The notes beneath the pieces were generated by a model. It saw only the letters and a list, made by a program, of their open reading frames with translations, had not been told where the DNA came from and did no database searches. From NCBI GenBank assembly GCA_037444185.1, contig JBBIMW010000002.1, forward strand, positions 73,433 through 105,432: DNA of 32,000 nucleotides. The letters run 5' to 3'. This DNA comes from Peptococcaceae bacterium (lineage in GTDB: Bacteria > Bacillota > Desulfotomaculia > Desulfotomaculales > Desulfocucumaceae). Below are positions 5,146-26,125 of this stretch, in pieces (the first letter of the stretch is position 1; every line of letters starts with the position of its first letter). Position numbers and translations under genes: made by a program.

Positions 5146-5181
5146 TCGGCATCCGTCCTCTCATAAGGTGTAAATCCGGAT

Positions 5182-6420: not shown

Positions 6421-6506
6421 AAATCGATGCTCCTCCCCTCTACGGATTTTGTTATCAGTATTTTCCATTCAGAACCTGATTTTACAGAACAGCATTTCCA
6501 ATGCGG

Positions 6507-8365: not shown

Positions 8366-8375
8366 CCTTTTCACC

Positions 8376-9329: not shown

Positions 9330-9763
9330 TGGCAAGCACACCCCGATTCTTTACTGGCAGTCAGCCCTTTGTTGGGGCCCAGTTTTTTTACCCTGTCTGT
9401 CACTTCCCTGACCAGCTCGGCGAACCGTCCACCCTCGGCGGCGGATACCCAGGAAAAATTGATCCTGTCCCCGTCCACGCCGATGTACTCCATCAAGCTC
9501 TTCAGCAGGGCGAATTTCCTTCTGGCCACCAGGTTGCCACTAACATAGTGGCAGTCGCCCGGGTGTCACCCGGAGGTAAGCACGCCGTCCGCCCCGTTCT
9601 TAATGGCGGACATTATAAAAAGAGGGTTTATCCGGCCCGAGCAGGGTATGCGTATGACGCGTATGTTCGGGGGGTACTGGATGCGGCTCACGCCGGCCAG
9701 ATCCGCCCCCGCGTAACTGCACCAGTTGCATAGAAACGCCACTATTTTCGGTTCCCATTCCAT
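9317..9763 (-). CDS. mvhD: MvhD/FlxD-like [2Fe-2S] protein, paralog 2, with in-frame UGA (probable Sec) at 9566-9568
   Basis: Track ORFs 9566..9763 and 9317..9529 are in the same frame and are separated only by one TGA plus 12 sense codons. The joined product is 148 aa: ...[28 protein letters not shown].... Paralog 1 has Cys at this position (GVLVAGCLEGDCHF). The ATG at 9763 has GGGGGAGGG 7 nt upstream. Confidence 0.8.
9536..9552 (-). promoter_or_regulatory. Candidate bacterial SECIS hairpin for mvhD paralog 2
   Basis: The minus-strand RNA GCCACUA-UGU-UAGUGGC forms a perfect 7-bp stem with a 3-nt loop and starts exactly 13 nt 3' of the UGA. Confidence 0.5.
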
Positions 9764-9785
9764 AATCTGTCCCTCCCCCTGTCCT

Positions 9786-12700
9786 TTATATGGCGCAGAT
9801 CATGGCCATGATCTGCTCGTCGGTGCATCCCTTTACGTTCAGTGCCCCGCAGCGGCAGGATGATGAGCAGGCCCCGCAGCCCTTGCAGAGGGCCTCGTTG
9901 ACCAGAGCCACTTTCTCGGTCGGGTCCACCGTCACCGCCCTGGCCGGGCACACCGACTCGCAAACACCGCAGCCGGCGCACCTTTTCTTGTTGACCACGG
10001 CGCACTTGCCCTCCACATTGATGGACTCCTTGGCCAGCACTGTGCAGGCCCTGGCCACGGCAGCCTTGGCCTGGGAGATGTTTTCCTCCATGTTTTTAGG
10101 TCCGTGGGCCAGACCGCACATGAAAACGCCGTCGGTGCCGAAGTCTACCGGCCGGAGCTTTAAGTGGGCCTCCAGGAAGAACCCTTCCTGGTTCAGCGGC
10201 ACTTTGAAGAACTGCGAGAGCCGGCTGTTTTCGGACGGCACTATGGCGGCCGCCAGCCCGACAACGTCGGCGTCGATGAGCACCGGCACCCCCAGCACGT
10301 GGTCGGTCACCGTCACCTTAACCTTATCCCCGTCCGCCTCCACCACGGGCTTGTCGTCCAAAGAATAGCGTATGAAGATGACCCCCCGGCGCCGGGCCTC
10401 GGTGTACAGATCCTCGTAAAATCCGTAGGACCGGATGTCCCTGTAGAGTATGAACACATTGGCGTCCGGGTTTGTCTCCTTGACTTTCAGCGCCTGTTTG
10501 ATGGACTTGGTGCAGCAAATGCGGCTGCAGTACGGGCGTTCCGGCTCCCGGGAGCCCACGCACTGAATGAACACCACATTGTTCAATCCGGCCAGTCCGC
10601 CTTCGGCCAGGTCGGACTCCAGTTCCAGCAGTGTCTTGATCCTGTTGTTCCGGCCGTACAGATATTCCGTCGGCGTGTATTCCTGTCCGCCGGTGGCGAT
10701 GATGGTTACTCCGTGCTGCAACTCCTCACCGCTGGACAGTTTGGTCACGAAATTGCCTACGAATCCGTGCACCTCGGCAATTTCAGCCTCTGTATACACT
10801 TTAATCAGTTCGTTGGATTTTACCTTTTCAACAAGGTCGCTCAGATACGACTGGATGTCTTCCCCTTTCATTCCGTAACGGATGCGGCTGGCAATGCCTC
10901 CCAGCCGGTCGGACTTCTCCACCAGGCTCACTTTATATCCCTGGGCGGCCATATTCAGGGCCGCATTCATTCCCGATACCCCGCCGCCGATGATCAGGGC
11001 GTCATGGTTCATGCCCAGGCTGATTCCCTTGATGGGCTCTTGCAGGGCTGCTTTGCAAACGGCCATTTTGACCAGGTCCTTGGCCTTTTCTGTGGCTTTT
11101 TCGGGATCGGCCTGGTGCACCCAGGAACATTGATCCCTTATATTGGCCATTTCGTAGAGGTTGGGGTTCAGCCCCGCCTCTTTCAGTGTTTCCTGGAACA
11201 TGGACTCATGGGTTCTGGGGCTGCACGACGCCACCACAATGCGGTTGAGGTTGTACTTTACAATTGCTTCTCTGATTTGTCCCGATGTGTCCTGGGAGCA
11301 GGCATACAGCTTCTCATCGGCGAAAACAACTCCGGCCAGGGTCTTGGAGTATTCCACCACCTCCGGCACCCTCACCACGCTGCCGATGTTGATTCCGCAA
11401 TGGCACACAAATACACCGGTGCGCACTATCTCACCGGTAACGTCACGCTCCGGAGGATACTCCTTTTTTCTGACCAGGGTGCCCCTGACGCCGGAGAGTA
11501 TCACCGAAGAGTCAGCCGCCGCGGCGCTGGCCTGCATGACGGTCTCCGGAATGTCCCTGGGGCCGCTGAAGGCGCCGGCCACATATATTCCCGGCTTGTT
11601 GGTGCCTACTCCGGTAAAGCTGGGGGGCTCGGCGAAATTAAATTTGTTCAGATCCACACCCAGTTTTCCGGCCAGTTCCGCCACTTCCCCGGAGGGCTCC
11701 AGCCCTATGGAAAGAACCACCAAATCGAACTCCTCTTCTGAAATGGACCCATCCTCGTTGGAGTAACGTATCCTTAGATTTCCGCTGCCGTCGGCGGCCT
11801 CGGCAACCTCGTACACCCTGGACCGGATGAATCGCACACCATGCTCTTCCCTAGCCCGGTCATAGTATTTTTCAAACTCTTTGCCGTATGTTCTCATGTC
11901 CATGAAAAATATGGCGGTATCCAGTCCGTAAGGAGAGTGTTCCTTGGCGATGACCGCTTCCTTGATGGCGTACATACAGCACACCGATGAGCAAAAGCCG
12001 TGGTCAATCCTGCAATTTCTGGACCCAACGCACTGAATCCAGGCGATTTTCCCCGGCTCCTTGTGGTCCGACGGACGAACCAGATGGCCCCCAAAAGGGC
12101 CCGATGCGCTTAATATGCGCTCGAACTCAAGGCTGGTCAGTACATTGGAAAACTTGCCGTATCCGTAGTAGAACAGCTGCTTTGGCCGGAATGCGTCAAA
12201 ACCTGGGGCCATAATGACCGATCCCACTTTTACCTCGATGGTCTGATCCTCCATAGAATGGTCTATGGCGTTGGCCTGACAGGTCTCAAGACATTTTCCG
12301 CAGGCTTTGGGTTTCTTGATTTTAAGGCAGTTGTCCCTGTCAATGGCGTAGGCGTTGGGATACGCCTGGGCGTAAAGTTTATAGATGGCTTTACGTTTGC
12401 CCAGGCCCTGGTTGAATTCGTCGCCGACTTTTTTCGGGCACTCTTCGGTACAGCTGCCGCAGCCGGTGCATTTGTCCGGGTCCACCAGCCGGGCTTTTTT
12501 AAGTATGGTGGCGGTGAAATTGCCGGGCTCACCCTTGATATCAACAAGTTCTGCCCCGGTTAAGGTTTCGATGTTCAAATGGCGGCCGCACTCCACCAGC
12601 TTGGGCGACAGTATGCACATGGAGCAGTCGTTGGTGGGAAAGGTCTTGTCCAGCATCGGCATTGTGCCGCCGATGGCCGGTTTCTTTTCCACCAGGTAGA

Positions 12701-12800
12701 CGTAGTAGCCTGACTCGGCCAGATCCAGGGATGCCTGTATGCCGGCTATTCCGGCGCCCAAAATCAGCACGGCCCCGACCTTTTCGGGTGTGTTGGTCAT
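9786..12800 (-). CDS. hdrA: Large HdrA-like flavoprotein, paralog 2 (1004 aa)
   Basis: Collinear with 2107..5145 and clearly paralogous to it. It has the same double GxGxxG, double CVGSR..CSS/Rx[14 protein letters not shown] and C-terminal 2x CxxCxxCxxxCP architecture. Confidence 0.9.
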
Positions 12801-13245: not shown

Positions 13246-14040
13246 TTATCCCCGCCTGAAGGTCTTCAGGAAGGAATCGCAGTATATGTTTTTGTTCAAA
13301 AAAATATTGCCCGCCGCCACAGCGTCCAGCAGCAGCGGGTCGTCCACCTCCGCAATTACGGAATCCAGCCCCGCCGCCATGCACATGACCAGAAAGGTCC
13401 GGTTCAGCAGGCGCCGGTCACTGCAGCGCTGGGAGGCGTTGGAAAGCCCCAGGGTGGTCCGCACACCGGGCGCCAGTGTTTTGATTTGCCGGATGGCCCC
13501 CAGCACTTCCACCCCGTGTTCCTGGGCTACATTGGCGGGCAGCATCAGCGGGTCGATGAAAAGATCTTCCATGGCGATACCGCGCATGTCGGCGTTGACC
13601 ACTATTTCCATGGCCAGGGCGACCCGGTCGGCGGCGCTTTTGGGCACACCGCCCTCGTTCATGGTCAGTCCGATGATGGCTGCGCTGTATTTGGCCGCCA
13701 TGGGCAGGTAAAGGTCCAGCTTCCACTGGTCGGCCTGGGTGGAGTTAATCATCACCTTGCCGTGCCTGTTGGCTGCGCATCCCGCCTCGATGGCCCCGGG
13801 GTTGGCGGAGTCGATGCAGCAGGGCAGGGGAACGGTGTCGTTGCATATATTGACCAGCCACTCCATTACTGCGGGCTGTTCCTTCGATTCCACAGAAGGG
13901 CCGGTGTTTACGTCAAGGTAGTGCGCCCCCGCTTCATACTGGCGCCTTGCCCAGTGCCTGACGGGACCCGGGTCCCGGTTTATTATTGCCGTCCTTATAT
14001 CCGTAAACATGCCGTTTATCCGTTCACCAATGAGGATCAT
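13246..14040 (-). CDS. acsE: Methyl-THF:corrinoid/Fe-S protein methyltransferase (pterin-binding MeTr)
   Basis: 264 aa with MILIGERINGMF, DVNTG, CIDS and GLSNASQ motifs typical of AcsE and pterin-binding (DHPS-like) domains. It lies downstream of acsD. Confidence 0.9.
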   Translation of the reverse strand: MILIGERINGMFTDIRTAIINRDPGPVRHWARRQYEAGAHYLDVNTGPSVESKEQPAVMEWLVNICNDTVPLPCCIDSANPGAIEAGCAANRHGKVMINSTQADQWKLDLYLPMAAKYSAAIIGLTMNEGGVPKSAADRVALAMEIVVNADMRGIAMEDLFIDPLMLPANVAQEHGVEVLGAIRQIKTLAPGVRTTLGLSNASQRCSDRRLLNRTFLVMCMAAGLDSVIAEVDDPLLLDAVAAGNIFLNKNIYCDSFLKTFRRG

Positions 14041-14081: not shown

Positions 14082-15023
14082 TCAGGAACGCAGCATTTTG
14101 TCGATGTGCGCCCGGAGGTGCTTCAACGACTCCGGATGCCGCAGTACAAGCAGTGATCCTCCGGCCTGCGCCAGGGCGGTGGCTGTAAGTGTTTCCCAAA
14201 GTATGGCCCGGCGCTCCCGGTCGCCCCACTCTGGGATTTCACCGGTGGCGCTCCTGGCTTCCCTAGACTTCCATGCCTCCTGTCCCACAAAGCAGACCAT
14301 CGGCATGGCCAGCATCCTGTCACCGGTAAGGGCGCTGATCCGGGTCCGTTCCATAATGGAATACGCGTATTCAATACCATAGCCCAGGGCCCCCACCGAG
14401 GGGTCGATGATGATCCGGTTGGGCGGCATATTCATTTCCGTAATCAGAATGTTTAATTGTTTTTCCAGACTGATATCCAAGGGGGTGGAGGGAATTATGC
14501 TATGCCCGTACACCATGCAGGCGGCGGTTACGGCCTTGTAGTTCCCGGGAGTGGCGCAGCCGAGGGCGATGTTTCTGCCGGCCAGGAACTCGGCAACTTT
14601 TTCTATTATCCGGGCATCTTTTTCTTCCTCGCCGCATCCAAGAATGACAAGGGGTGCGCTCACCCCGTCGGCAACATTCCTGGCCACCCGGGCGCATTCT
14701 TCGGGGCTGGTGTTCCGGTTGTCCGGATGGGCACTGATCAGTGTCAGGCAGACCACATCGGCGCCGTAATCCACGCATTTTTTTGCCCAGGCCGCCGGGT
14801 CCCCCAGTACTCCGGCATAGGGGCCGGTAAGAATGTCCGGCCAGTCGGAGGGCACCATGTCCCACACTTCCAGGGCCACCGCCGGGCGGTTGGGAATTTC
14901 TCCCTCGAAATGGAGGAAGGGCAGGGTGGCCTCACCTCCTATTTTAACCGCGCCGGAACCTGTTCCCAGCACCACTTCCGCAACCTTGCCGGTCCATCTT
15001 TCTCTGGCTATGGTAACGGCCAT
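14082..15023 (-). CDS. acsD: Corrinoid/Fe-S protein small subunit (CFeSP delta, AcsD/CdhD family)
   Basis: Its sequence is paralogous to 19736..20659 (GGE..LPF..FEG, ALEVWD, DPSVGALGYG). The track start is 15032. The ATG at 15023 has GGAAAGGA 8 nt upstream. Confidence 0.88.
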   Translation of the reverse strand: MAVTIARERWTGKVAEVVLGTGSGAVKIGGEATLPFLHFEGEIPNRPAVALEVWDMVPSDWPDILTGPYAGVLGDPAAWAKKCVDYGADVVCLTLISAHPDNRNTSPEECARVARNVADGVSAPLVILGCGEEEKDARIIEKVAEFLAGRNIALGCATPGNYKAVTAACMVYGHSIIPSTPLDISLEKQLNILITEMNMPPNRIIIDPSVGALGYGIEYAYSIMERTRISALTGDRMLAMPMVCFVGQEAWKSREARSATGEIPEWGDRERRAILWETLTATALAQAGGSLLVLRHPESLKHLRAHIDKMLRS

Positions 15024-15123
15024 GATTGACATCCTTTCCTGTAATATATAACTTGAAAATGGCTCATTCCGCGCTCCTCACCCCGTCATTCTCACGGGCT
15101 GCGGGCAGCCGGCCCCCGGACAG

Positions 15124-15882
15124 TTAAAGCACGGATGTTTTATGCAGAATTTCTTTGACGGCGGTCACCACCGGGTTGTCTTCGGGCAATTCCACCAGCG
15201 GTTTGCCCTGCAGATCATAGGTGAAAACTTGATGGTCCCTGGGGATGGCGCCTATGAAATCCAGCCCGGTCCGCCGTATTTCTTCCTGCAGGGACTCTAT
15301 GGAACCATCGTCCACCCTGGAAACCACCAGATACATTTTCTTCACATCCAGGGCCAGGGAATTCACCAGTTTTTTAATCCTTCCGGCGGACCGGACGCCC
15401 CGGACGCTGGCGTCGCTGGTGACGAAGAGAATATCCACATTCTGGGTGGTGCGCCTGCTCAGGTGCTCCAGGCCCGCCTCGTTGTCCATAACTACATAGG
15501 GGTAATTATTGCTCAATTTATACACAAAATTCCGCACCAGATTGTTCACAAAGCAGTAGCAGCCGGATCCTTCCGGGCCGCCCATGACCATCAAGTCCAC
15601 GTTATCGCTTTCCGCCAGGGACTGATGGACTTTGTAGGCCACGTACTGATCCTTGGTCATGCCCGCCGGTAAGGGCTCCAGGTTGTTGTTCACCCGGGCT
15701 ATGAGTTCGGCTATCGTATCGTTAACTTCAATTCCCAGGGCCTCGTTCAGGTTCGCATTGGCGTCGGCATCCACGGCCAGCACCGGCCCCTTCCCGTTTT
15801 TGACCAGTTGCCCTATAATCAGTGCTGCCAGAGTGGTCTTGCCCGTTCCGCCCTTGCCGGCGAGGGCAATGGTAAATGCCAT
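15124..15882 (-). CDS. cooC: CooC/AcsF-type nickel-insertion ATPase (CODH/ACS maturation)
   Basis: P-loop GKGGTGKTT immediately after the start and a CxC metal motif (GSGCYCFVNN). The ATG at 15882 has GGAAGGTG 5 nt upstream. The track start TTG 15903 has no such site. Confidence 0.85.
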   Translation of the reverse strand: MAFTIALAGKGGTGKTTLAALIIGQLVKNGKGPVLAVDADANANLNEALGIEVNDTIAELIARVNNNLEPLPAGMTKDQYVAYKVHQSLAESDNVDLMVMGGPEGSGCYCFVNNLVRNFVYKLSNNYPYVVMDNEAGLEHLSRRTTQNVDILFVTSDASVRGVRSAGRIKKLVNSLALDVKKMYLVVSRVDDGSIESLQEEIRRTGLDFIGAIPRDHQVFTYDLQGKPLVELPEDNPVVTAVKEILHKTSVL

Positions 15883-15959
15883 ATCAGCACCTTCCTTTCT
15901 CAAAAAAATGGTTTTTCACCCGGAAAACAGCGAAATATAAAGCATGTGCCGCAATGCCC

Positions 15960-17303
15960 TCAGGCCCTCCAGAGCTGTTTTATGAAGGAAGGTATGCCGG
16001 AAGATTCCTGCGGCCCCACCAGTACTTCCCAGCCGGAAAGCTCCCGGATCTTGCCGCTTAAAACAGCCACGCCGCCGGGGATGATAACCCTGCGGTGGTT
16101 CACCCGTTCGGCAATGCCGGAATTGGTCAGCATTTCCGCGACTTTTTCTGGCGTGAACCTGCCGGCGGCCCAGCCGGTCAGCACCGAAGTGCCGTCGGTG
16201 TCCACCGGCAGGATATATCCCGGCACCCGGCTGGCCTCCACATCACCCGCCATACAGAAGTAGGTGAGGGAAAAATTGGTGGTGATGTATACCGGCGCGT
16301 CCGGCCCCGGCTGGCCGATCTCATAAATCCTGGACTCTATGGCAATAGGTTTTTGCGGGTCTGTATAGATATTCAGCCGCAGGGTAATCAGTGACAAAAC
16401 ATCCGCCGGGTCCACCGATTCTATAACTACAATGCCCGCATATTTGGCGATGTAGACACCGGCTTCCACAACGGACTGAAGGGGATCTTCAGCGCTGGCG
16501 AAGGTTATGGTGGGGTATCCGAAGGGTTTGAAGCGTTTTAGGGCCAGCCGGCGGATCTGGGTCTGATCCGCCAGAACAAGGTGCGCATCCCTGGCGCCGG
16601 AATCCAGGAACAATTGCTTGTGTCCCAGGGCCGCCACTTTTTCCACCAGCCCGGCCAGGCTGTCCAGGCTGGTTCCCTTTACCGCCAGAGGCGCTTCGTA
16701 CCTCCTGGCCAGGGCGGTCATGGCATTATAATTGGTTTCATCGGCGCCGCAAAGCAGGGGCTTTCCCGGTCCGGCGATTTCCAGCGCTTTTTCCATGGAT
16801 CCGGGGTCGGCGGTGATCAGTATCAGCGGGTATCCGGTGTTTTCGGCCACCATTTTCACCGTTGCGGCAAATCTGTCCCGATCGTTGGAACAATTGCAGA
16901 CAGCCACCAGGTCTATTCGATATTCCCGGCCCACACGGTCGAAAACCAGCCCATTGATTTTTTCCACCCTGGCGGCCACTTCCTCCATATCCAGGGTGTC
17001 ACAAACGCTGACGGCTATGCCCGTGGGGTTTTCAAAGCGCTTGTCATGGCGGAAGAGAACAGTCTCATTGCCCAAGGCCAGTTGTTTCTCTCCGGCGCCT
17101 ATTTTCACCAGGGCCACCGGCGGGGCGGAAGCGGCGCCCAGGATTTCCCTGGCTTCATCGCCGACATGGGGACACTGATCCAGCCCGGCTTTTCCGGAAA
17201 CCATGGCCATGGCAAATGCCAGACAAGTTGCTTGACCACATTCTTTACAATTGGTTTTCGGCAGCAGCTTAAAAATTTCCAGGCCCGTCAAACCCATTGC
17301 CAT
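15960..17303 (-). CDS. acsC: Corrinoid/Fe-S protein large subunit (CFeSP gamma, AcsC/CdhE family)
   Basis: N-terminal [4Fe-4S] motif NCKECGQATCLAFAMAMVSGKAGLDQCP. Paralogous to 21717..23090. The ATG at 17303 is preceded by AAAGGAGAA, and the track start at 17369 adds 22 non-conserved residues. Confidence 0.9.
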   Translation of the reverse strand: MAMGLTGLEIFKLLPKTNCKECGQATCLAFAMAMVSGKAGLDQCPHVGDEAREILGAASAPPVALVKIGAGEKQLALGNETVLFRHDKRFENPTGIAVSVCDTLDMEEVAARVEKINGLVFDRVGREYRIDLVAVCNCSNDRDRFAATVKMVAENTGYPLILITADPGSMEKALEIAGPGKPLLCGADETNYNAMTALARRYEAPLAVKGTSLDSLAGLVEKVAALGHKQLFLDSGARDAHLVLADQTQIRRLALKRFKPFGYPTITFASAEDPLQSVVEAGVYIAKYAGIVVIESVDPADVLSLITLRLNIYTDPQKPIAIESRIYEIGQPGPDAPVYITTNFSLTYFCMAGDVEASRVPGYILPVDTDGTSVLTGWAAGRFTPEKVAEMLTNSGIAERVNHRRVIIPGGVAVLSGKIRELSGWEVLVGPQESSGIPSFIKQLWRA

Positions 17304-17403
17304 TGTTCTCCTTTCCTGAAGTCTTCCTGGGGAGTGTTGCGAAACCTGTCCCGGGGACGCCGGGTGCATAGCCTTCCGGCCGAAGCCCGGACAAAGGTCC
17401 CGG

Positions 17404-19584
17404 CTAAACCAGTGGGTCCATGGTCAGGGCTGGATGTCCCATGTCCTTTAAAAAGGGCAGTATTTCTTCGCAGGTGACGCCGGTTTTTTCGTCGGCAATC
17501 TGATCTACGAAGCCTTTGCCAAGCCCCCATAACTCTTCCGCAGCCACCTCCAGCAAGGGCCGGAGCTGTTCTTTCAGATCCCGGGGCATCCAGATCAGAC
17601 GTCCCAGGCCTCCGTCAGCCGGGACAAATTTCCGGGAGGCCAGATATGATCTGGCGATACCCATAAAGCCGGGAACCTGCGCCCCGTTGCCAATCATGCC
17701 GGCAATGGCTGAAAAGGTCATGCCGGTGGGATTCATTCCCTGGTACTCACGGTGGACTGCGATGAAGCCGTTGCATTCCGGCACCACGGCCAGTATGCAG
17801 TCCAAACAGCTGGAGGAGGCCATCGGGTGTTCCATCAGGGTGTAAAGATTAACCTTGTCCATGGAGTGCTGTGAATTATTATATACAAACTCGTTGACGG
17901 CCTCCCACTGTCCCTTGATTTCATCTATTGTTCCTTCCTTCGGCACCGGCTGGTTTACGCCGCCGGGGTTGATTTCGCAGGCCGCCCTGGCATCCAGCCA
18001 GCTGACCGCGCCGCACTGGCCCGCGCGTTCAGGAGTTATGACGCACACATGGGCGGGGGCAACCGACTGGCAAAGTGTGCAGGAGTAGAATGTATCGACA
18101 ATTTCGTCCCTGAGGGCCTTTAAATGATCGTCCCGCTTTTTATAGAAACTGCGCGCCAGCTCCCGCATGTCCAAAACCTTTTGTTCATCGGTATATATGG
18201 TTACCTGGACGCGGTCGACTATTGCGGCAAATTCCGCCTTCAGCCTGGCATACAGTATGTTTCCGATGTGCCTCATACGGAAGCCCAGGGCGAAGGCATC
18301 CTTGCTGATCCTCATCCAAAGGGCGTCCCGGTGTCCGGTATGCCATAGTCCTTCACCGTGATTTATATAATAGTGGATACGCCGCTCCAGCACGGACTCA
18401 AAATCTTCCCTCATCCTGCGGCCGTATACATCCACCACTATGCCCAGTGGCATTGCGCCGCCCGGTTCCGCAGTGTCGGCATCGGGCCCGGCCACCGTGA
18501 CCTTCCCGTCCTCCACCTCTTCCGCCTTTGCCATCCGTACCAGTTCGAAGCCGGTGGTGCGTCCTCCGCCGAACTCAACCGCCAGATCGCTCTTCCTTAT
18601 GCTCTCGCCCTCGTAGGCCGGGTCAATCTCTATGGGCGCATCGATCCTGATGTTGGTTATTTTAATCTCCCGCAGCTCCATGCCCAGCTGAATCGCTTTG
18701 TCCAGTCCGGAGCAGGAGACAAACCAGTCTTCAATCCGCCTGTCGCTGGAAAGGGGTTGATCGGTTATGACCGGTATCCCCATACTGAGGGCCCCCATGC
18801 AAAGGGCCGTCTTGAAAGGGTCGTGCTTCCCCAGATAAAGTATAAATGACCGGATCCTCCGGCGCTGAAAATCCAGTTGGCCGTTCCTTTGCCCGGCTTC
18901 AACGCCTCCGATGATCGTCCCCGCCCGCAGAATGAAACTTGGGAATTGTATAGCCCGGCTAAAATCACCCAGGGGGTAGATCATGGAGTCTACGCCCGGA
19001 ATCAGCCCCGGGTCCGGCAATTGATCAATGACTCCGCCACACAGAAAAATCATAAATCCCATCCCGGCAAGCTTATCAATGGCGGCGGCCAGCTCCTTGG
19101 CGTCCCCGGCGCTACCCATAATCAGCACTTCGCCCGGGATGGTCCAGTCCGCCATTTTGATTCCGTACCGGCGTATCACGGAATCTCCCAGGAAACCTTC
19201 CGGGGCGGGAGTGTGCGGCAGACGGCGGACCGCGTCGATGATTTCGGCTGCGTACCATGCGGCCTCTCCGGCAAAAAGATAACCGTCAAGACACCGGGGA
19301 TCCTCCGCAAGTACGCTTTGCAAACGGGTCAAAACCGGTGCGCACTGTCCCAGGGTTTCTATTTTTTCGCCGCTCAAACTGTAGATTACAGGCAGATAAT
19401 AGGCGGTATCCGGATAGCCCACGGGCCGGTCCGCTCCATATTCGCCAATGGCCCGGTTTAAAAGGTGCACCGCCTGACCGACGGCGTCAATGGCGCCTGA
19501 ATAGGCGTCCTTTAATAGACCCTCCGGTTCCTGGCCCGGGATCATTGCCCCTTTTAAAAAGTCAAAATTCACATGCCCGGACAT
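17404..19584 (-). CDS. acsB: Full-length bacterial-type acetyl-CoA synthase (AcsB) homolog with a non-canonical A-cluster nickel motif
   Basis: 726 aa. It has the N-terminal CODH-docking domain (PVGYPDTAYYLPVIY). The [4Fe-4S] ligand set is present (SCTLCQSVAPAHVCVITPERAGQCG). The Cys-Gly-Cys site, however, reads HPMASSSCLDC (17797-17817), whereas the paralog has HTACGCFQ. ATG 19584 is preceded by AAGGGGGAG. Confidence 0.85.
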   Translation of the reverse strand: MSGHVNFDFLKGAMIPGQEPEGLLKDAYSGAIDAVGQAVHLLNRAIGEYGADRPVGYPDTAYYLPVIYSLSGEKIETLGQCAPVLTRLQSVLAEDPRCLDGYLFAGEAAWYAAEIIDAVRRLPHTPAPEGFLGDSVIRRYGIKMADWTIPGEVLIMGSAGDAKELAAAIDKLAGMGFMIFLCGGVIDQLPDPGLIPGVDSMIYPLGDFSRAIQFPSFILRAGTIIGGVEAGQRNGQLDFQRRRIRSFILYLGKHDPFKTALCMGALSMGIPVITDQPLSSDRRIEDWFVSCSGLDKAIQLGMELREIKITNIRIDAPIEIDPAYEGESIRKSDLAVEFGGGRTTGFELVRMAKAEEVEDGKVTVAGPDADTAEPGGAMPLGIVVDVYGRRMREDFESVLERRIHYYINHGEGLWHTGHRDALWMRISKDAFALGFRMRHIGNILYARLKAEFAAIVDRVQVTIYTDEQKVLDMRELARSFYKKRDDHLKALRDEIVDTFYSCTLCQSVAPAHVCVITPERAGQCGAVSWLDARAACEINPGGVNQPVPKEGTIDEIKGQWEAVNEFVYNNSQHSMDKVNLYTLMEHPMASSSCLDCILAVVPECNGFIAVHREYQGMNPTGMTFSAIAGMIGNGAQVPGFMGIARSYLASRKFVPADGGLGRLIWMPRDLKEQLRPLLEVAAEELWGLGKGFVDQIADEKTGVTCEEILPFLKDMGHPALTMDPLV

Positions 19585-19626
19585 ATCAACTCCCCCTTAT
19601 TTAAACCGGCCGGATTGCGGGCAAAC

Positions 19627-19670
19627 AAAAAAAAAGCCCTGGCCCTAAGTCCAGGTGAACCCATAGGGCC
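19627..19670 (-). terminator. Probable intrinsic terminator between the two acs/cdh sets
   Basis: Minus-strand GGCCCUA...UAGGGCC (19664-19670 with 19641-19647), with alternative inner CCUGG/CCAGG pairing, followed by GC-rich bases and U9 (19627-19635). It lies 66-109 nt after the acsD-like stop. Confidence 0.55.
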
Positions 19671-19735
19671 GAACGACAGCTAAACGGCAAAGCACACCAA
19701 GTGCCGGCCGGAAGGTATATTCATCTTTCACCGGC

Positions 19736-20659
19736 TCACACTTCAATTTGGCCTGTGGAAAACTGTCCGAGCAGTTTCTTGACCAGTTTCATACTGTCCG
19801 GTGATCCCACGACAGCCAGATTGGCTCCGGCCAAAAACATGGTCATGGCCGTTATGGCTTCCCAGAGTATGCCCTGCTGGTCATTTTCCTTGGCTTCCCT
19901 GGCTCTCCAGCATTCCCTGCCCAGGTTGGCGATGATGGGCATTTTCATCATGTCGTCTCCAAAGAGCACCGCCACCTGCTTAATGCGCTCCATTACCGAA
20001 AAGCTGTAGTCCATGCCATAACCCAGGGCCGACGACAGGGGGTCGATAACAATCCTTTCTTTGGGGAAAAACTTGGACAGTTTGATGTTCAGTTCTTTGG
20101 CCAGGTTTATGTCTATGGGGGTCTGGGCGATTAGCGCATGACCGTATTCCTGGGCCGCTTCCGCAATCTCCTTGTGGTTTTCTTTTAAAACAGGCCCCAA
20201 TAACAGCCCGTCACCGGCGCAAGCCCGGGCGACTTCTCTCAACACCAGGGTGTCTACGTCCTTCTCTCCGGTGCCGTATACAATCATGGGCGCCGGCAGG
20301 GCATCGCCGATTTCCTTGACCTTGGCCGCCAGCGCCGGCGCATCGGGCTCCCCTTCGGCGGCGGAGGCCAGATAAAGGCAAATCAAATCCGCCTTGTACA
20401 CTTCCAGGCATTTTTTAGCCCAGAGGACCGGAGAATTTACAACATCGCCAAAATGGGAGCGCAGGTGATCCGGCCAGGTTTCCGGCGGCGTGGTGTCCCA
20501 TACCTCCAGAGCCATCACCGGCAGCCGGGGCAGATTGCCCTCGAAGTTATGAAAAGGCAGCACTGCTTCCCCGCCAATGGTGGCCGACTTGCCCTCTTTT
20601 CCAATGGTAACTTCTTTAATGGCTCCTTTTGAAGCTTCCAGAAAATCTTTCAGTGGCAT
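19736..20659 (-). CDS. acsD: Corrinoid/Fe-S protein small subunit, second paralog (AcsD/CdhD family)
   Basis: 307 aa, collinear with 14082..15023 (GGEAVLPFHNFEG, ALEVWD, DPLSSALGYG). Confidence 0.85.
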   Translation of the reverse strand: MPLKDFLEASKGAIKEVTIGKEGKSATIGGEAVLPFHNFEGNLPRLPVMALEVWDTTPPETWPDHLRSHFGDVVNSPVLWAKKCLEVYKADLICLYLASAAEGEPDAPALAAKVKEIGDALPAPMIVYGTGEKDVDTLVLREVARACAGDGLLLGPVLKENHKEIAEAAQEYGHALIAQTPIDINLAKELNIKLSKFFPKERIVIDPLSSALGYGMDYSFSVMERIKQVAVLFGDDMMKMPIIANLGRECWRAREAKENDQQGILWEAITAMTMFLAGANLAVVGSPDSMKLVKKLLGQFSTGQIEV

Positions 20660-20678
20660 CTTTGCTCCTCCCTTAAAC

Positions 20679-21551
20679 CTAAATCTCCAGCCAAGAATGG
20701 GAATATAACACCCTTCCCATTAAAACATTGACCGTTTTTACCAGGGCGGCCTCGTGGGGGGGCAAATCCGCCGGATTGATTTCCTCGTCCATGGCCCGGT
20801 AGATTAAATCCACATCCGCCTGTTTTTCTCCCCGCATCAGTGCCACCATCTCGCTGTCGAAGCTGTCCACAATGGCCGAATACAAGCCGTGCCTTTGCAG
20901 TATCACCAGTTCTATACGGTTCAATATGCCTCTCAAATGGTGGGGCGCCCCGTTGGACATATTGGACAGCCCCAGGGTTGACTTGGCTCCCGGGGCAATA
21001 TCCGGCAGCATGTCCATGAACTCCATCAGCTCAACCACCTGGGGCTGATCCACCCCTATGGGCATCATAATGGGATCCACCCAGATGTTTTCGTTGTCAA
21101 TTCCAATCTCATTGGCGTAGGCAATGGTCTCCATAATGGCCTCGGCCCTTGATGCCGCATCGGAAGGGATGCCCTTGTCGGTCAATACAGATATTATGAC
21201 ATCACAGTTGTACTTTGCGGCCAGGGGAAGCATATCCCTTTTACTGTCTTCCCGGCCGGAGGCGGAATTAATTAGGGGCCTTTTTTTGCAGACCGCAAGA
21301 CCCGCTTCCATCGCCACGGGGTTCAAGGTATCCAGTGACAGCGGCGAATCCACAACTTCCTGCACAGTTTCCACCAGCCAGCGCATAACGTCAGGATCCT
21401 TTCTTGCCGGCCCGACATTTAAATCAATATAGTCCGCTCCCGCCTCGGCCTGTTTTTTGGCCAAGTCCTGCAGGGGAAGGGGATTGCGCTGCTTAATGGC
21501 CTCGGACACCTCATTGGACAGAATATGAATATTCTCTCCAATTAAAATCAT
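20679..21551 (-). CDS. Divergent pterin-binding methyltransferase (AcsE/MtrH-like), second paralog
   Basis: Contains MILIGENIH, DLNVG, SLDT and GLSNMSNG motifs. The ATG at 21551 has GAGGGGG 8 nt upstream, and the track start at 21587 adds 12 residues without a ribosome-binding site. Confidence 0.8.
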   Translation of the reverse strand: MILIGENIHILSNEVSEAIKQRNPLPLQDLAKKQAEAGADYIDLNVGPARKDPDVMRWLVETVQEVVDSPLSLDTLNPVAMEAGLAVCKKRPLINSASGREDSKRDMLPLAAKYNCDVIISVLTDKGIPSDAASRAEAIMETIAYANEIGIDNENIWVDPIMMPIGVDQPQVVELMEFMDMLPDIAPGAKSTLGLSNMSNGAPHHLRGILNRIELVILQRHGLYSAIVDSFDSEMVALMRGEKQADVDLIYRAMDEEINPADLPPHEAALVKTVNVLMGRVLYSHSWLEI

Positions 21552-21643
21552 ATTACTAACCCCCTCTGTATTTATAGCATCTTCCATTTAACGGCCGCGG
21601 CCGGTGTCCGCCATTTGCGGCGCCGCGCCACGGTATCCCCGGT

Positions 21644-21688
21644 GTATCCGGCACCCATCCGCCCTATGGCCCGATGGGTGCCGGATAC
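21644..21688 (-). repeat. Perfect 16-bp inverted repeat (hairpin) in the acsC-like / methyltransferase intergenic region
   Basis: GTATCCGGCACCCATC (21644-21659) pairs with GATGGGTGCCGGATAC (21673-21688) around a 13-nt loop. No U-tract follows. A 12-bp perfect palindrome CGGCCGCGGCCG lies nearby. Confidence 0.6.
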
Positions 21689-21716
21689 GTTGTTCATTTA
21701 ACCCGTCCCGGGGCGC

Positions 21717-23090
21717 TTATGCCGTCTCGGCCTTCCATTTGCTGGTCAGCTTGGTCATAAAGGCGGGCACCTCTTCTGCGTACTTGGGACCAACTATAAT
21801 CTCCCAGCCGGGCAGCTCATCCTCTATTTCGCCCTTGAGCCTGGCCGCCAGACCTGGAATGATCAGCCTCTTTTTCTTCAGCGTGTTTTCCAGACCGCTT
21901 TTCTTGATGAAGGGGCCGATGGTTTCACCGACGAATTTGCCCGTTGACCAGGCCGCCAGAATACACAGTCCGTCTGCCCCCTTTACGCCGACGTAGCCGG
22001 GAACTTTGCTGGACTCCACGCCGTTGGCCACCGCGAAATAGGTCAGGGCGAAGTTGGTGGTAAGGAACACCGGGGACTCTTCCGTCGGCCCGCCGATTTC
22101 ATAAACCTTCTCCTCCACAGCCAGCGGCACCCGCGGATCTGTGTAGATGTTGAGCCGGTGCACCAGAAGGGGGAACAGCGTCTCTTTGTGCAGGTCATTG
22201 AGCACTATAATGGACGCATATTTGACTACCAGGGCGGAAGCCGTCAGCGCCTCCTCCATGGCGTCCTCCGCCTGGAGGGGCAGCAGGGAAATAATCGGAT
22301 ATCCCAGGGGCCTGTAGCTGTGGGTGAGGGCAGCCCGCCTGGCCAAAGTGTAATCCCTAATCGCCTCTTGCATATCCCGGGGTGATGAGTCTATAACAAC
22401 CTCTGTAATGCCGGCGGCTTTCAGTTGGGCGGTCAGCAGTCCGACTTCTTCCAGACCCCGGCCCCTCACCGCCACAGGCACCGCCTTTTCCTTCAGAGCC
22501 GGCAGTGCATCCCCTATATTATCCTTGGTTATGGGATACAGCAGCGGCTTCTGATCGGCGGCCAGATCCCTGGCGGCCATAAGCACCTCCAGGTTTTCAC
22601 TCATCAGTATCATGGGAAGATTTTCCCGGGCCGCCCTGGATACCAGGGACAGGTATCTGTCTCTGTCGCCGCCCTCGAATTTGACGGCAATCATGTCCGC
22701 CCTGAGTTTGATGGCAACCCATTCAAACTGTAATTCTTTTATTTTTTTCAATTTTGCTTCCACAGTCTGGTCGTCGTCTTTGTCGGTTATCAGCACGGCA
22801 AAACCGGGGGGGCGGAAAAATGTCTTTTCATGACGATAGATTACTTCCTCCTCCCCTATGACCAAAGCCCCTTCACCTGTGCCGACGGTCACCAGCCTTA
22901 TGGGCGGCGTAATGGCGTCTATAACCCACTCTTTCACTTCCGGCTCAATTTCCGGACATTTATCCGGGGACACCCCACCGGCCAGCAGTTTCATGGCAAA
23001 GGCCAGACAAGTGGGTAAACCGCACTTTTTACAGTTTTTCTTGCCTCCCCCGGGTAGTTTTTTCTGTATATCGGATGCTTTTACAGGCAT
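21717..23090 (-). CDS. acsC: Corrinoid/Fe-S protein large subunit, second paralog (AcsC/CdhE family)
   Basis: 457 aa with N-terminal NCKKCGLPTCLAFAMKLLAGGVSPDKCP. Collinear with 15960..17303. Confidence 0.9.
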   Translation of the reverse strand: MPVKASDIQKKLPGGGKKNCKKCGLPTCLAFAMKLLAGGVSPDKCPEIEPEVKEWVIDAITPPIRLVTVGTGEGALVIGEEEVIYRHEKTFFRPPGFAVLITDKDDDQTVEAKLKKIKELQFEWVAIKLRADMIAVKFEGGDRDRYLSLVSRAARENLPMILMSENLEVLMAARDLAADQKPLLYPITKDNIGDALPALKEKAVPVAVRGRGLEEVGLLTAQLKAAGITEVVIDSSPRDMQEAIRDYTLARRAALTHSYRPLGYPIISLLPLQAEDAMEEALTASALVVKYASIIVLNDLHKETLFPLLVHRLNIYTDPRVPLAVEEKVYEIGGPTEESPVFLTTNFALTYFAVANGVESSKVPGYVGVKGADGLCILAAWSTGKFVGETIGPFIKKSGLENTLKKKRLIIPGLAARLKGEIEDELPGWEIIVGPKYAEEVPAFMTKLTSKWKAETA

Positions 23091-23107: not shown

Positions 23108-24307
23108 TCAGCCCACCATAAGAGGATGCTCCACTTTCTGGAGAAACTCAACCAGTTCGTCTACATTCTTTACATCCTCTTCGGTGGCGATTTTGCCGTA
23201 CAAGTCCTCGGGAATGGCGTCCTTGACCTCTTCCTTGATGGCTTTGGGCAGCCATACCACCCTTTGCCAGCCTCCGTCGCTGATTATAAATTTTGGCGAC
23301 TTCAGGTAGGATACGGCCATCCCCAGAAAGCCCTCCTGCTGCCGGCCGCCGCTGGCTTCCCCGGCCATATTGGAAAAGCGGTTGCCCATTACGGTGTCCC
23401 CGACAAAGTCCCGGTGAACGATTCCGAAACCATCCACCTCGGGTATATAAAAACAGATGGACTGGAAGCATCCGCAGGCGGTATGAGGATTTTCCAGGGC
23501 GCTGTGCAGGTAGTATACCGAGTTCCGGCCCAGGGACCTTTGTGCCACCACATCGTTGACTCCGCTATAGACATGCTTTTCCGGATCCAGCATCTCGCCT
23601 TTCTCTACAGCGAATATGCCTCCCTCCGGATCGATCTTGTAGGCGGCCCTCCCGTCCAGCCAGCTGATGGCGCCGCACAATGACATCCTCTCAGGGGTGA
23701 TGATGCATACATGGGTGGGGGCAAAGCTCTGACAAAGGACGCAGCCGTAAAATTCCTCCACTTCTTCCTCGGTCATGCCTTTCAGCCTGTCATCCCTGCC
23801 TTGGTAAATGGGTCTGGCGTTCAGTACCTTTTCTTTCACCAGTTCCGGATCAGTTATAAATGTAACCTGCATCTTTTCAATGATGGGCAGTTCGTTGGAA
23901 AAAAGCATAATCAGTATTTGACCGACTTCATTCAGGGAGTTCAGGCCTTTTTGGACGGCTTCCTTGTGGATCCTGAGCCAGATATGATCCCTCTGGGCCA
24001 TATGCCAGAAACCTTCGATATAGTTGCTGTAAACGTGAATGCGGCGTTCGAAAACCGGCTCCATGTCCTTTTCCAGTTCCTCTCCGGACACCTCCACGCT
24101 GATGAATAGCGGGTAAGTCTTCCCCTGCTCCATATCCATAATGTCCGGGCCGATTATCTCCACCTTCTCGTGTTCCACTTCATCCGCCGGCTTGATGGTA
24201 ACCAGCTCGGCCTTGTACTCGCACTGGGGCCCGCCGAATTCCACATAATAATCGGCTTTCCTGATAGCTTCTCCTTCATACTGGGGCCCTACATCTACAG
24301 AAAACAT
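23108..24307 (-). CDS. cdhC: Short acetyl-CoA synthase catalytic subunit lacking the bacterial N-terminal domain (archaeal CdhC-like)
   Basis: 399 aa, starting at the position equivalent to about residue 310 of the 726-aa AcsB. It has a complete A-cluster ligand set (GCVLCQSFAPTHVCIITPERMSLCG and the canonical ACGCFQ). Confidence 0.85.
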   Translation of the reverse strand: MFSVDVGPQYEGEAIRKADYYVEFGGPQCEYKAELVTIKPADEVEHEKVEIIGPDIMDMEQGKTYPLFISVEVSGEELEKDMEPVFERRIHVYSNYIEGFWHMAQRDHIWLRIHKEAVQKGLNSLNEVGQILIMLFSNELPIIEKMQVTFITDPELVKEKVLNARPIYQGRDDRLKGMTEEEVEEFYGCVLCQSFAPTHVCIITPERMSLCGAISWLDGRAAYKIDPEGGIFAVEKGEMLDPEKHVYSGVNDVVAQRSLGRNSVYYLHSALENPHTACGCFQSICFYIPEVDGFGIVHRDFVGDTVMGNRFSNMAGEASGGRQQEGFLGMAVSYLKSPKFIISDGGWQRVVWLPKAIKEEVKDAIPEDLYGKIATEEDVKNVDELVEFLQKVEHPLMVG

Positions 24308-24642: not shown

Positions 24643-25335
24643 TCAGTTTTTTGCATTCAATGCCTCTTCCACCGCCTGTTTGGTCATCAGCCCCGCATGA
24701 CGCATCAGCGTGTCGCCGATTTCAGGATCCATGGTCATGGTGGCAGTGCATGGATGGGCGTGGCTCAGGAGCCCTGACTGCTCCACCGCATCCTTGACCG
24801 GCACCCCCACCAGGTTTTTGGCCACGTACCTGGTATTTCCGCAGGGCGCATCCCGCAGAACCTTCACCTCACTTATTTTGTCTTTTGTCACATATATTTC
24901 CACCTTCGGCCGACCGAAGTAGCGGGTGAACATCTGCACATGGGGGTTGGAGCTGTCATTTTCCGTTATCGAGCAAAAAACCAGCGGATGGAGCATTTCA
25001 ATCCCTTTGGCGGCCAGCTTCTTTTTAATTTGCCTGGCCAGTCCCGAAGGGAGATGGGCTTTATTGTCAATGGGCGCGATAACCGCCCTGGCCCCGGTCA
25101 TTTTAACCAGGTCCGGCGCCATTTCAGCCACCACCGGCTCCTCCTGCAGCATCAGCAGCAGGTCGGCGCCGGGCAACCCCGGAGGCAGCAAATCTTCCCA
25201 CGAGTCATCCACCCCCAGCGATATTTTTGGAGGAAAAGCATGGTGGTGGATCTCCCACTCCTGAGGGCCGTAGTTTTTCAGCGCTTCGACGTACCGGCGG
25301 CCGTAATCGCCCTGGATTACCAGAAGAATCTTCAG
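24643..25335 (-). CDS. Small conserved protein of unknown function, tandem copy 1 (DUF166/COG1810-like from memory); no canonical start codon at the homologous N-terminus
   Basis: Roughly 85% identical by eye to copy 2 over its whole length. The track ORF starts at an internal GTG (25212), but homology continues in frame about 40 codons upstream (LKILLVIQGDYGRRYVEALKNYGPQEWEIHHHAFPPKISLG) as far as a TGA at 25363-25365. The position matching the copy-2 TTG is CTG (25333-25335), 9 nt after GGGAGGGGG. Confidence 0.5.
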   Translation of the reverse strand: MKILLVIQGDYGRRYVEALKNYGPQEWEIHHHAFPPKISLGVDDSWEDLLPPGLPGADLLLMLQEEPVVAEMAPDLVKMTGARAVIAPIDNKAHLPSGLARQIKKKLAAKGIEMLHPLVFCSITENDSSNPHVQMFTRYFGRPKVEIYVTKDKISEVKVLRDAPCGNTRYVAKNLVGVPVKDAVEQSGLLSHAHPCTATMTMDPEIGDTLMRHAGLMTKQAVEEALNAKN

Positions 25336-25407
25336 CCGTCTCAGCCCCCTCCCGTCCGCCGGTCATGTCGGCGGCCCGATAACAGATTTTTTACCAAGGC
25401 CCCCTAT

Positions 25408-26100
25408 TCAGTTTTTGCTTTTTAGGGCTTCCTCCACCGCCTGCTTGGTCATCAGTCCCGCATGATGCATCAATGTGTCGCCAATCTCGGGATCCATAGT
25501 CATGGTGGCCGTGCAGGGATGGGCATGATGTAGAAGCCCGGACTGTTCCACTGCGTCCTTGACGGGTATCCCTGCCAGATTTTTGGCCACGTACCTGGTA
25601 TTCCCGCAGGGCGCCTCCCGCAGAATCTTCACCTCACTCACCTTGTCTTTTTCCACGGTTATCTCCAGCTCCGGCCGGCCGAAGTAACGAACAAAGTCCT
25701 GTATATAGGGGTTTTGGCTGTCCTTTTCCGTGATGGAGCAAAAAACCAGCGGATGAATCATTTCAACTCCTTTGGCGGCCAGTTTCTTTTTAATTTGCCT
25801 GGCCAGCCCCGAAGGAAGATAGGCCTTGTTGTCGATGGGGGCTATAACCGCCCTGGCCCCGGTCATTTTAACCAGGTCCGGGGTCATTTCAGCCACCACC
25901 GGCTCCTCCTGCAGCATCAGCAGCAGATCGCACTGGGGCAAATCAGGGGGCAATAAATCTTCCCAGGAATCATCCACTCCCAGCGATATTTTTGCGGGAA
26001 AAGCATGGTGGTGGATCTCCCATTCCGGCGGGCCGTAGTTTTTCAGCGTTTCGACATACTTGCGGCCGTAGTCACCCTGGATTACCAGAAGAATTCTCAA
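25408..26100 (-). CDS. Small conserved protein of unknown function, tandem copy 2 (DUF166/COG1810-like from memory)
   Basis: A 230-233-aa ORF with conserved PCGNTRYVAKN and HHAHPCTATMTMD motifs. TTG 26100 lies 8 nt after AAGGGGG. The track alternative is GTG 26109. Confidence 0.7.
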   Translation of the reverse strand: MRILLVIQGDYGRKYVETLKNYGPPEWEIHHHAFPAKISLGVDDSWEDLLPPDLPQCDLLLMLQEEPVVAEMTPDLVKMTGARAVIAPIDNKAYLPSGLARQIKKKLAAKGVEMIHPLVFCSITEKDSQNPYIQDFVRYFGRPELEITVEKDKVSEVKILREAPCGNTRYVAKNLAGIPVKDAVEQSGLLHHAHPCTATMTMDPEIGDTLMHHAGLMTKQAVEEALKSKN

Positions 26101-26125
26101 CTGTTTCACCCCCTTTTTTTGTCAG

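Follow-up and report, generated by a model that had tools for sequence, protein, structure and literature searches.

The bacterial acetyl-CoA synthase (ACS) AcsB, represented by the structures from Carboxydothermus hydrogenoformans and Moorella thermoacetica (1ru3, 7zkj, 1mjg, 1oao), consists of three domains (A1, A2 and A3), of which A1 contains the channel, shapes the alcove and is the part that binds the carbon monoxide dehydrogenase (CODH) (PMC11474084). The CO alcove comprises the residues F229, I146, F512, V149 and G145 (PMC11321310), and the gating helix has been described with a 'highly conserved' Val152, with Trp154 and with Met151 as plug (PMC12289521). In the archaeal-type CODH/ACS, the channel and the alcove are supplied by the CODH subunit CdhA (PMC11474084). 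The 32,000-nt stretch analysed here (the window; Peptococcaceae bacterium, assembly GCA_037444185.1, contig JBBIMW010000002.1, positions 73,433 to 105,432) encodes a full-length AcsB homolog, here called acsB*, in which the Ni-binding Cys-Gly-Cys (CGC) of the A-cluster reads Ser-Ser-Cys. The reading preferred here, with a probability of roughly 0.6, is that AcsB* is a catalytically dead, [4Fe-4S]-only pseudo-ACS kept by selection for a non-catalytic role. The features of the gene are the following:

17404–19584, minus strand: acsB*, full-length AcsB homolog of 726 aa with A1, A2 and A3 and without the Ni-binding Cys-Gly-Cys (open reading frame, Pfam, HMMER)
17797–17817, minus strand: degenerate Ni motif S590-S591-S592-C593-L594-D595-C596 (translation, alignment, codon comparison)
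18013–18081, minus strand: kept [4Fe-4S] cysteines C502, C505, C514 and C524, equivalent to Moorella C506/C509/C518/C528 (alignment)
18802–18933, minus strand: A1 tunnel/alcove positions 218 (A222 to Ile), 225 (F229 to Ile) and 261 (A265 to Leu) (alignment)
19138–19182, minus strand: gating-helix region, residues 135–149 (Moorella 139–153), with P139S, V141I and V149A

AcsB* is matched from end to end by the crystal-structure ACS of C. hydrogenoformans (~1000 bits) and M. thermoacetica (~920 bits) in HMMER alignments with 1ru3, 8cjb and 1mjg/1oao; it shares with them the three domains (Pfam CODH_A_N, PF18537; CdhC, PF03598; ACS_CODH_B_C, PF19436), 55–58% identity, the four [4Fe-4S] cysteines and an active-site surrounding free of gaps, and the gene is thus full length as the initial annotation of this DNA had proposed. 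The reverse complement of 17797–17817 (TCC TCC AGC TGT TTG GAC TGC) translates to S-S-S-C-L-D-C, and in the gap-free motif region S591-S592-C593 fall on Moorella Cys595-Gly596-Cys597, which gives S594, C595S, G596S, C597, F598L, E599D and a Cys at position 600 in Moorella numbering. The absence of Cys-Gly-Cys, first noticed in the initial annotation, is therefore borne out by the re-read DNA and by the alignment to solved structures, and so are the intact A-cluster cysteines, which are present in all seven members of the clade described below. The cysteine three residues after the motif had been taken for a new one; it is ancestral, being Cys in 57 of 112 canonical relatives and in all the nearest ones (CGCFEC).

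Among the 120 nearest database homologs, the motif column is CGC in 112, and the remaining eight are the window protein (SSC), six further clusters at 90% identity with SSS or SSC, and a single SGC protein; natural canonical close relatives read CGC without exception (110/110). In an independent metagenome sample of 80 full-length AcsB genes, not picked by motif, CGC and the four cluster cysteines were found in all 78 genes that cover the site. The column hardly varies among these relatives, and the survey also answers whether related proteins share the altered motif: a Ser-Ser-x (SSx) clade exists, with a characteristic gene neighbourhood. Its motif is SSS (five of seven members) or SSC, followed by LDC, and four more variants that cluster with P0005 have SSC-LDC. 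Scans of GTDB genomes and of metagenomes gave canonical AcsB only and no further clade members. A sequencing or assembly artefact, or a frameshift masking a normal CGC, can practically be discarded and was rejected: the window protein is recorded identically in the NCBI contig of 124 kb from a metagenome-assembled genome and in an independent Logan read assembly, so that the motif is not restored by other data; in at least 11 relatives, drawn from different samples, the motif is likewise SSS or SSC; and every motif change is an in-frame single-nucleotide step (TGC to TCC, GGC to AGC, TGT to AGT, TTC to TTG, GAG to GAT). The Ser-Ser-Cys is real, neither an error nor chance variation.

Cys595 is absent in all clade members, and the five with SSS lack both thiolates bridging proximal and distal nickel. 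Unlike bacterial AcsB, the protein thus has Ser at Cys595 and Gly596, Leu at Phe598 and Asp at Glu599, with Ser at Cys597 in most of the clade. It can be predicted with high confidence from these replacements that AcsB* is unable to assemble the Ni-Ni site and hence should not be an active ACS; because the Ni-Ni part of the A-cluster cannot form, it should neither make nor cleave acetyl-CoA. The four retained cysteines very probably still bind a plain [4Fe-4S] cluster. AcsB* scores 907 bits against NCBIfam NF040764, above the equivalog cutoff of 800, which means only that annotation pipelines name it an ACS, and the clade members carry ordinary ACS names in GenBank and IMG. NCBIfam holds no separate family for ACS homologs without the Ni motif, and several of these exceed the ACS equivalog cutoff.

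Along with the metal site, residues of the CO alcove, gating helix and tunnel in A1 and A3 have changed; the comparison was made at positions that do not vary among natural canonical relatives and differ throughout the clade. Tunnel Ala222 is Ile, Val or Leu and Ala265 is Leu, Ile, Phe or Val in all seven members, against Ala at both positions in all 110 natural canonical sequences; Pro139 is Ser, Val141 is Ile and Val149 is replaced in 7/7, and Trp151 is kept in the window copy and is Arg in five of seven. In the alcove, F229I and F512V (residue 508 is Val) are further changes of the window copy, which with these and with V149A, A222I and A265L departs from the alcove, gating-helix and tunnel residues expected of an ACS (G145, I146, V149, F229, F512; W151; A222, A265). 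The A222L/A265M tunnel substitutions of Moorella ACS, studied by Tan et al. in 2005, are said to block CO channelling, and the same is reportedly true of A225L/A268M of C. hydrogenoformans ACS from the 2024 work of Ruickoldt et al. The clade is naturally bulky (aliphatic or aromatic) at these same two alanines; the engineered enzyme, unlike the clade, kept its Ni site, whereas the clade has lost the Ni site and the CODH partner too. A225L and A268M are engineered variants according to their PDB titles (8cmw, 8cjb, 8cja). A UniRef entry labelled C. hydrogenoformans (P0044; Leu225, Met268) came from the PDB and could mislead conservation analyses; a natural origin of Leu and Met at the tunnel positions of this species was rejected, as P0044 is the engineered A225L/A268M variant, and natural Carboxydothermus pertinax has Ala at both positions.

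The AlphaFold2 (AF2) model of AcsB* is ACS-like, with a predicted template-modelling (TM) score of 0.75 from a 34-sequence alignment, and it matches ACS structures in Foldseek (TM 0.74 to 6ytt_A, and 0.92 to 9fnc_D for the N-domain). The model is metal-free, and its predicted local distance difference test (pLDDT) falls below 50 at residues 588–605 and 611–644. In the canonical sister P0012, modelled from the same alignment, the equivalent region is confident and includes a beta-hairpin that is lost in AcsB*, which suggests that the loops normally wrapping the nickels may be remodelled.

At least 12 distinct sequences have the acsB* frame intact, with no frameshift or stop codon. Within the clade its mean dN/dS is 0.13, compared with 0.06–0.14 for eight neighbouring genes (pairwise Nei-Gojobori, NG86, ratios that are approximate because dS of 0.8–2 is near saturation for many pairs). 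By domain, dN/dS is 0.19 in A1, 0.11 in the middle domain and 0.08 in the C-terminal domain, and all seven members keep 50%, 89% and 74%, respectively, of the canonical columns conserved at 98% or more. The residues of the new motif persist while their codons vary synonymously (Ser TCC/TCG, Ser AGC/AGT, Leu TTG/TTA/CTG, Asp GAC/GAT), a GAAGGGAGAA-type Shine-Dalgarno is kept before the start in all clade loci, and T106A, P139S, V141I, Q422H, L527Q and T622N are fixed in 7/7. Since dN/dS is ~0.13, the Shine-Dalgarno is conserved and the motif is synonymously maintained, acsB* is under selection and not decaying, which upholds the earlier view of purifying selection on a gene that is not decayed. 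Additionally, acsB* has the highest dN in the cluster; the dN ratio of AcsB to AcsC is 0.7–0.8 in canonical genomes vs 1.2–1.4 for AcsB* to AcsC2 in the clade, and the distance of the clade to outgroups is ~2x that of canonical sisters. Constraint is partly relaxed, yet this is clearly no pseudogene in decay. AcsB* shows marks of a pseudoenzyme: homology to an enzyme that is active, loss of catalytic residues and an intact frame under purifying selection. An intact N-terminal CODH-docking domain had also been noted; the domain is present, although with dN/dS of 0.19 and half of its invariant columns kept it does not appear intact in function.

The genes around acsB* belong to two systems:

13246–14040, minus strand: acsE2, methyl-tetrahydrofolate:corrinoid iron-sulfur protein (CoFeSP) methyltransferase, set 2 (Pfam, NCBIfam, identity)
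14082–15032, minus strand: acsD2, CoFeSP small subunit, set 2 (Pfam, identity to canonical AcsD)
15124–15903, minus strand: cooC2, CooC/AcsF-type P-loop ATPase, P-loop GKGGTGKT and C-x-C intact
15960–17369, minus strand: acsC2, CoFeSP large subunit, bacterial-type set 2 (Pfam CdhD and FeS)
19585–19735, minus strand: intergenic region 5' of acsB*, with terminator-like hairpin and Shine-Dalgarno, without acsA
19590–19598, minus strand: strong Shine-Dalgarno AAGGGGGAG 5' of acsB*
~19628–19655, minus strand: terminator-like hairpin (CCTGG...CCAGG) with T-run, between set-1 acsD and acsB*
19736–20659, minus strand: acsD1, CoFeSP, set 1
20679–21587, minus strand: acsE1, methyltransferase, set 1
21717–23090, minus strand: acsC1, CoFeSP, set 1
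23108–24307, minus strand: short CdhC-type ACS of 399 aa, A2 and A3 only, Cys-Gly-Cys intact (...NPHTACGCFQS...)
30082–30858, minus strand: cooC of the archaeal-type block
30890–31441, minus strand: cdhB, archaeal-type CODH (NCBIfam TIGR00314 and TIGR00315, CODH genes)
31483–31995, minus strand: C-terminal part of cdhA, archaeal-type CODH, cut by the window end (NCBIfam TIGR00314 and TIGR00315, CODH genes)

Directly downstream of acsB* lie the CoFeSP, methyltransferase and CooC/AcsF-type ATPase partners of an ACS (acsC2-cooC2-acsD2-acsE2), and, as with bacterial AcsB, whose gene is followed by acsC, a cooC/acsF-type ATPase gene, acsD and acsE, hdr/mvhD/metVF come next. AcsC2 is 72–78% identical to canonical AcsC, the set-2 genes as a whole are 61–81% identical to canonical AcsC/CooC/AcsD/AcsE, and cooC2, the most conserved of them, keeps the P-loop and C-x-C in all six loci. 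Because of this 61–81% identity to the genes of canonical clusters, acsB* is, as judged from sequence comparison, the ortholog of their bacterial acsB. The neighbouring gene belongs to the separate short CdhC lineage, with which AcsB* shares its locus, its [4Fe-4S] cysteine pattern and, at 40% identity, homologous A2 and A3 domains, and from which it differs in that short CdhC keeps Cys-Gly-Cys, lacks A1 and is linked to archaeal-type cdhA/cdhB. Of the initial description as a diverged paralog under selection, the selection thus stands, and recent paralogy with the neighbour does not, given the 40% identity. The short CdhC lineage is widespread (Desulfobacterota, Chloroflexota, WS2, Bacillota) and tied to archaeal-type cdhA/cdhB. 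Several ~600-aa homologs of it (P0308–P0311, P0315, P0316 and others) also carry the CdhB/epsilon domain PF02552 beside PF03598 and PF19436, a domain combination that indicates probable cdhB-cdhC gene fusions in some bacteria.

In L004, L006 and L007 (Desulfofundulus salinus), the canonical sisters, the gene order is cooC-acsA-acsB-acsC-cooC-acsD-acsE-hdrA, whereas the SSx loci (the window, L001, L003, L008, L009 and L010) have no acsA, so that the bacterial CODH partner is missing from the window and from every clade locus, and acsB* stands directly behind an archaeal-type block. This block, which starts in the window with cdhA, cdhB and cooC, comprises in every SSx locus nuoF, a nuoG-like gene, DUF166, short cdhC, acsC, acsE and acsD 5' of acsB*; set 1 (19736–23090) lies directly upstream of acsB*, at the place of acsA in canonical clusters, in the same order in L001, L003, L008, L009 and L010. 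A tblastn search with AcsA found no acsA remnant above chance in the upstream gaps of the clade loci (150–730 bp). Since the archaeal-type CODH subunit supplies channel and alcove, the short CdhC needs no A1 domain from AcsB*, and it is presumed to be the working ACS of the locus. Downstream of the terminator-like hairpin, the 40 nt that precede the Shine-Dalgarno of acsB* showed no sigma-70-like promoter, and transcription may perhaps occur by read-through or from an unrecognised promoter. A role as tunnel partner, another of the functions initially suggested, is disfavoured because the docking domain is the least constrained, the tunnel, gating and alcove residues are replaced and acsA is absent.

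Several other features of the locus were recorded. The DUF166 genes (DfsP-like '(seleno)protein' family) stand in tandem (24643–26109, minus strand) and are 86% identical; in the downstream copy the frame runs on upstream through a homologous N-terminus (LRRLKILLVIQGDYGRRYVE...) with no ATG, GTG or TTG at the expected start. The NuoG/HoxU-like protein of the block (26126–27535, minus strand) has two tandem 2Fe-2S/4Fe-4S modules, and its equivalent at L013:6917–9913 is fused to a molybdopterin (formate-dehydrogenase-like) domain, with DUF166 fused to a NuoE-like domain. The region 3' of set 2 (50–12800, minus strand) holds two ~1000-aa HdrA-like paralogs (2107–5145 and 9786–12800), accompanied by HdrB/C-like, FrhB-like, MvhD, MetV and MetF genes; such an Hdr-MetFV module is usual in Moorella-type acs clusters, and here its HdrA is duplicated.

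In a neighbour-joining tree, the seven SSx clusters are monophyletic with 100/100 bootstrap support; their sister is the S-G-C protein P0009 (100/100), and the next branch outward, P0014, has CGC intact. Upstream of P0009 lie ~400 bp without coding sequence, and the protein has C595S, A222L and P139S; inside the clade, position 597 switches at least two times between the Cys codon TGT and the Ser codon AGT. The order of events suggested by this series would begin with the loss of acsA, the adjacent bacterial CODH gene, while an archaeal-type module (cdhA/cdhB, a short CGC-intact cdhC and its own CoFeSP and methyltransferase) came to stand at the upstream position and would presumably do the catalysis. 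Erosion of the CO-gating helix and of the tunnel in AcsB would have been the second step, followed by C595S, then by G596S, F598L, E599D and the changes at A265 and V149, and finally by C597S in most members. On this sequence evidence, acsB* is taken to descend from the original bacterial acetyl-CoA synthase of the lineage. L010 (P0011, L010:2459–5532), the most divergent clade member, has lost acsC2, acsD2 and acsE2; acsB* and the CooC-type ATPase gene are still adjacent there, with set 1 ahead of them and an unrelated chemoreceptor gene after them. The closest CGC-intact outgroup, P0014 (L012:9126–11327), has neither acsA nor cooC upstream; its gene order is a phasin-like gene and then acsB-acsC-cooC-acsD-acsE-metV-metF, its otherwise invariant gating helix has W151G and T152S, and it may possibly be an ACS that works without an adjacent CODH.

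Loss of nickel cysteines is also found beyond this clade. When 1.84 billion 50%-identity representatives were searched exhaustively with the C-terminal domain, there were 108 top matches covering both sites (survey P0121–P0270); 56 have CGC, 14 have CxC with a non-Gly middle and 38 lack at least one Ni cysteine, and the four cluster cysteines are kept in 51 of the 52 non-CGC representatives. The losses include SSL, SSS, SGY, CGR, CYR, CGD, SPC, TGL and GSV, in proteins of both AcsB length (~700 aa) and CdhC length (~400 aa) that are scattered over a rough tree. Non-CGC forms are rare by gene count, and representative sets over-weight divergent sequences; with about one third of divergent representatives lacking a nickel cysteine, these figures suggest that nickel-site loss is not a single oddity. 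A subclade from Candidatus Omnitrophota (P0402, P0141 and P0403; SGY or GGY) is nested among 116 canonical CGC sequences. Like AcsB*, these proteins are full-length, keep the four [4Fe-4S] cysteines, have lost the Ni cysteines inside the canonical CGC family and are publicly annotated as normal ACS; unlike AcsB*, they belong to another phylum, represent an independent event and have a fchA-folD-metF context. The nickel-less acsB of P0402 lies at:

L015:4670–6823: Omnitrophota acsB, in an operon fchA-folD-metF-(pyridine nucleotide-disulphide oxidoreductase)-acsB

There is no acsA, acsC, acsD or cdhC near this gene. No description of a natural ACS without the Ni motif, of AcsB paralogs or of natural tunnel mutants was found in the searchable literature, key subscription papers excepted.

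That AcsB* is still an active acetyl-CoA synthase which binds nickel unconventionally is very improbable: the fold, the [4Fe-4S] cysteines, the CoFeSP, methyltransferase and CooC/AcsF-type ATPase are all present and the NCBIfam cutoff is passed, but Cys595 is missing in every member and both bridging thiolates in 5/7, at a motif invariant in 110/110 natural relatives and 78/78 sampled genes, the residues needed for productive CO binding in alcove, gate and tunnel are replaced, and a gene for an ACS with intact CGC lies 3.5 kb upstream. A neofunctionalised enzyme, with new chemistry at an exposed [4Fe-4S] cluster or at an alternative single-metal site (Cys509, Cys597 where kept, Cys600, or new Ser/Asp residues) and no Ni-Ni, is unlikely. 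It would account for the fixation of S-S-x-L-D-C and other changed positions in 7/7 through synonymous codon changes, for the lowest dN/dS (0.08) in the C-terminal domain and for the loss of AF2 confidence at residues 588–644 relative to the canonical sister, which hints at a remodelled site. However, the Cys/Ser alternation at position 597 leaves no conserved three-thiolate site, Cys600 is ancestral and not conserved in active ACS generally, the fixed changes add no new conserved His or Cys ligands, and no new enzymatic partner genes appear in the clade loci. The different metal site put forward in the initial annotation therefore lacks support across the clade, where five of seven members have also lost the third motif residue.

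A functionless relic, made redundant by the takeover of the archaeal-type module and on its way to loss, would explain the highest dN in the cluster, the ~two-fold acceleration relative to partners, the doubled outgroup distance and the loss of set-2 genes in L010; the block functions without AcsB* elsewhere, and the independent nickel-less Omnitrophota AcsB lies in a locus without acsA, acsC and acsD. Such a relic is nevertheless quite improbable, since dN/dS of ~0.13 is held over dS of 0.8–2, at least 12 distinct sequences are free of frameshifts and stops behind a conserved Shine-Dalgarno, the middle domain holds 89% of its invariant columns, and L010 kept acsB* while acsC2, acsD2 and acsE2 were deleted. 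A broader view, in which AcsB* is one case of a recurrent, unrecognised class of ACS-like [4Fe-4S] proteins that lack nickel and have a positive function of their own (as an AcsF/CooC nickel-delivery adaptor to short CdhC, as a regulator of methyl flux that docks to CoFeSP, or as an exposed-cluster catalyst), is possible but doubtful; it assumes independent origins in Bacillota, Omnitrophota and many divergent ACS/CdhC lineages. Certain points weigh against the pseudo-ACS preferred here. An acsA or cooS gene may lie elsewhere in these genomes, the loci alone being covered; the archaeal-type block occurs without AcsB* in other bacteria (L014), which makes AcsB* lineage-specific and not an obligatory component of the block; the non-catalytic role and its partners are inferred solely from gene neighbourhood; Cys597 with Cys509 and Cys600 would provide three thiolates, and may form a single-metal site, in the window copy and the P0005 group; and the dN/dS ratios are approximate, while the two-fold acceleration could reflect a slow slide toward loss. 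If AcsB* is the selected pseudo-ACS proposed, its function would run through the well-conserved middle and C-terminal domains, and the likeliest partners would be the CooC/AcsF-type nickel-insertion ATPase CooC2 and/or the corrinoid iron-sulfur protein, which are always co-encoded.

ACS is an intensively studied metalloenzyme, and acsB is widely used as a marker of the Wood-Ljungdahl pathway in genomes and metagenomes. Databases most likely label AcsB* wrongly as a working carbon-fixation enzyme, and if the Cys-Gly-Cys column is left unchecked, acetogenesis or acetyl-CoA cleavage can be wrongly assigned on the strength of this marker. The natural series of acsA loss, gating-helix erosion, C595S and full Ni-site loss would record how a bifunctional CODH/ACS is dismantled after takeover by an archaeal-type system. 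Moreover, retention by selection points to an undescribed non-catalytic or moonlighting function of the ACS scaffold, which could dock CoFeSP, act together with the nickel-insertion ATPase, or bind CoA through a middle domain that has hardly changed.

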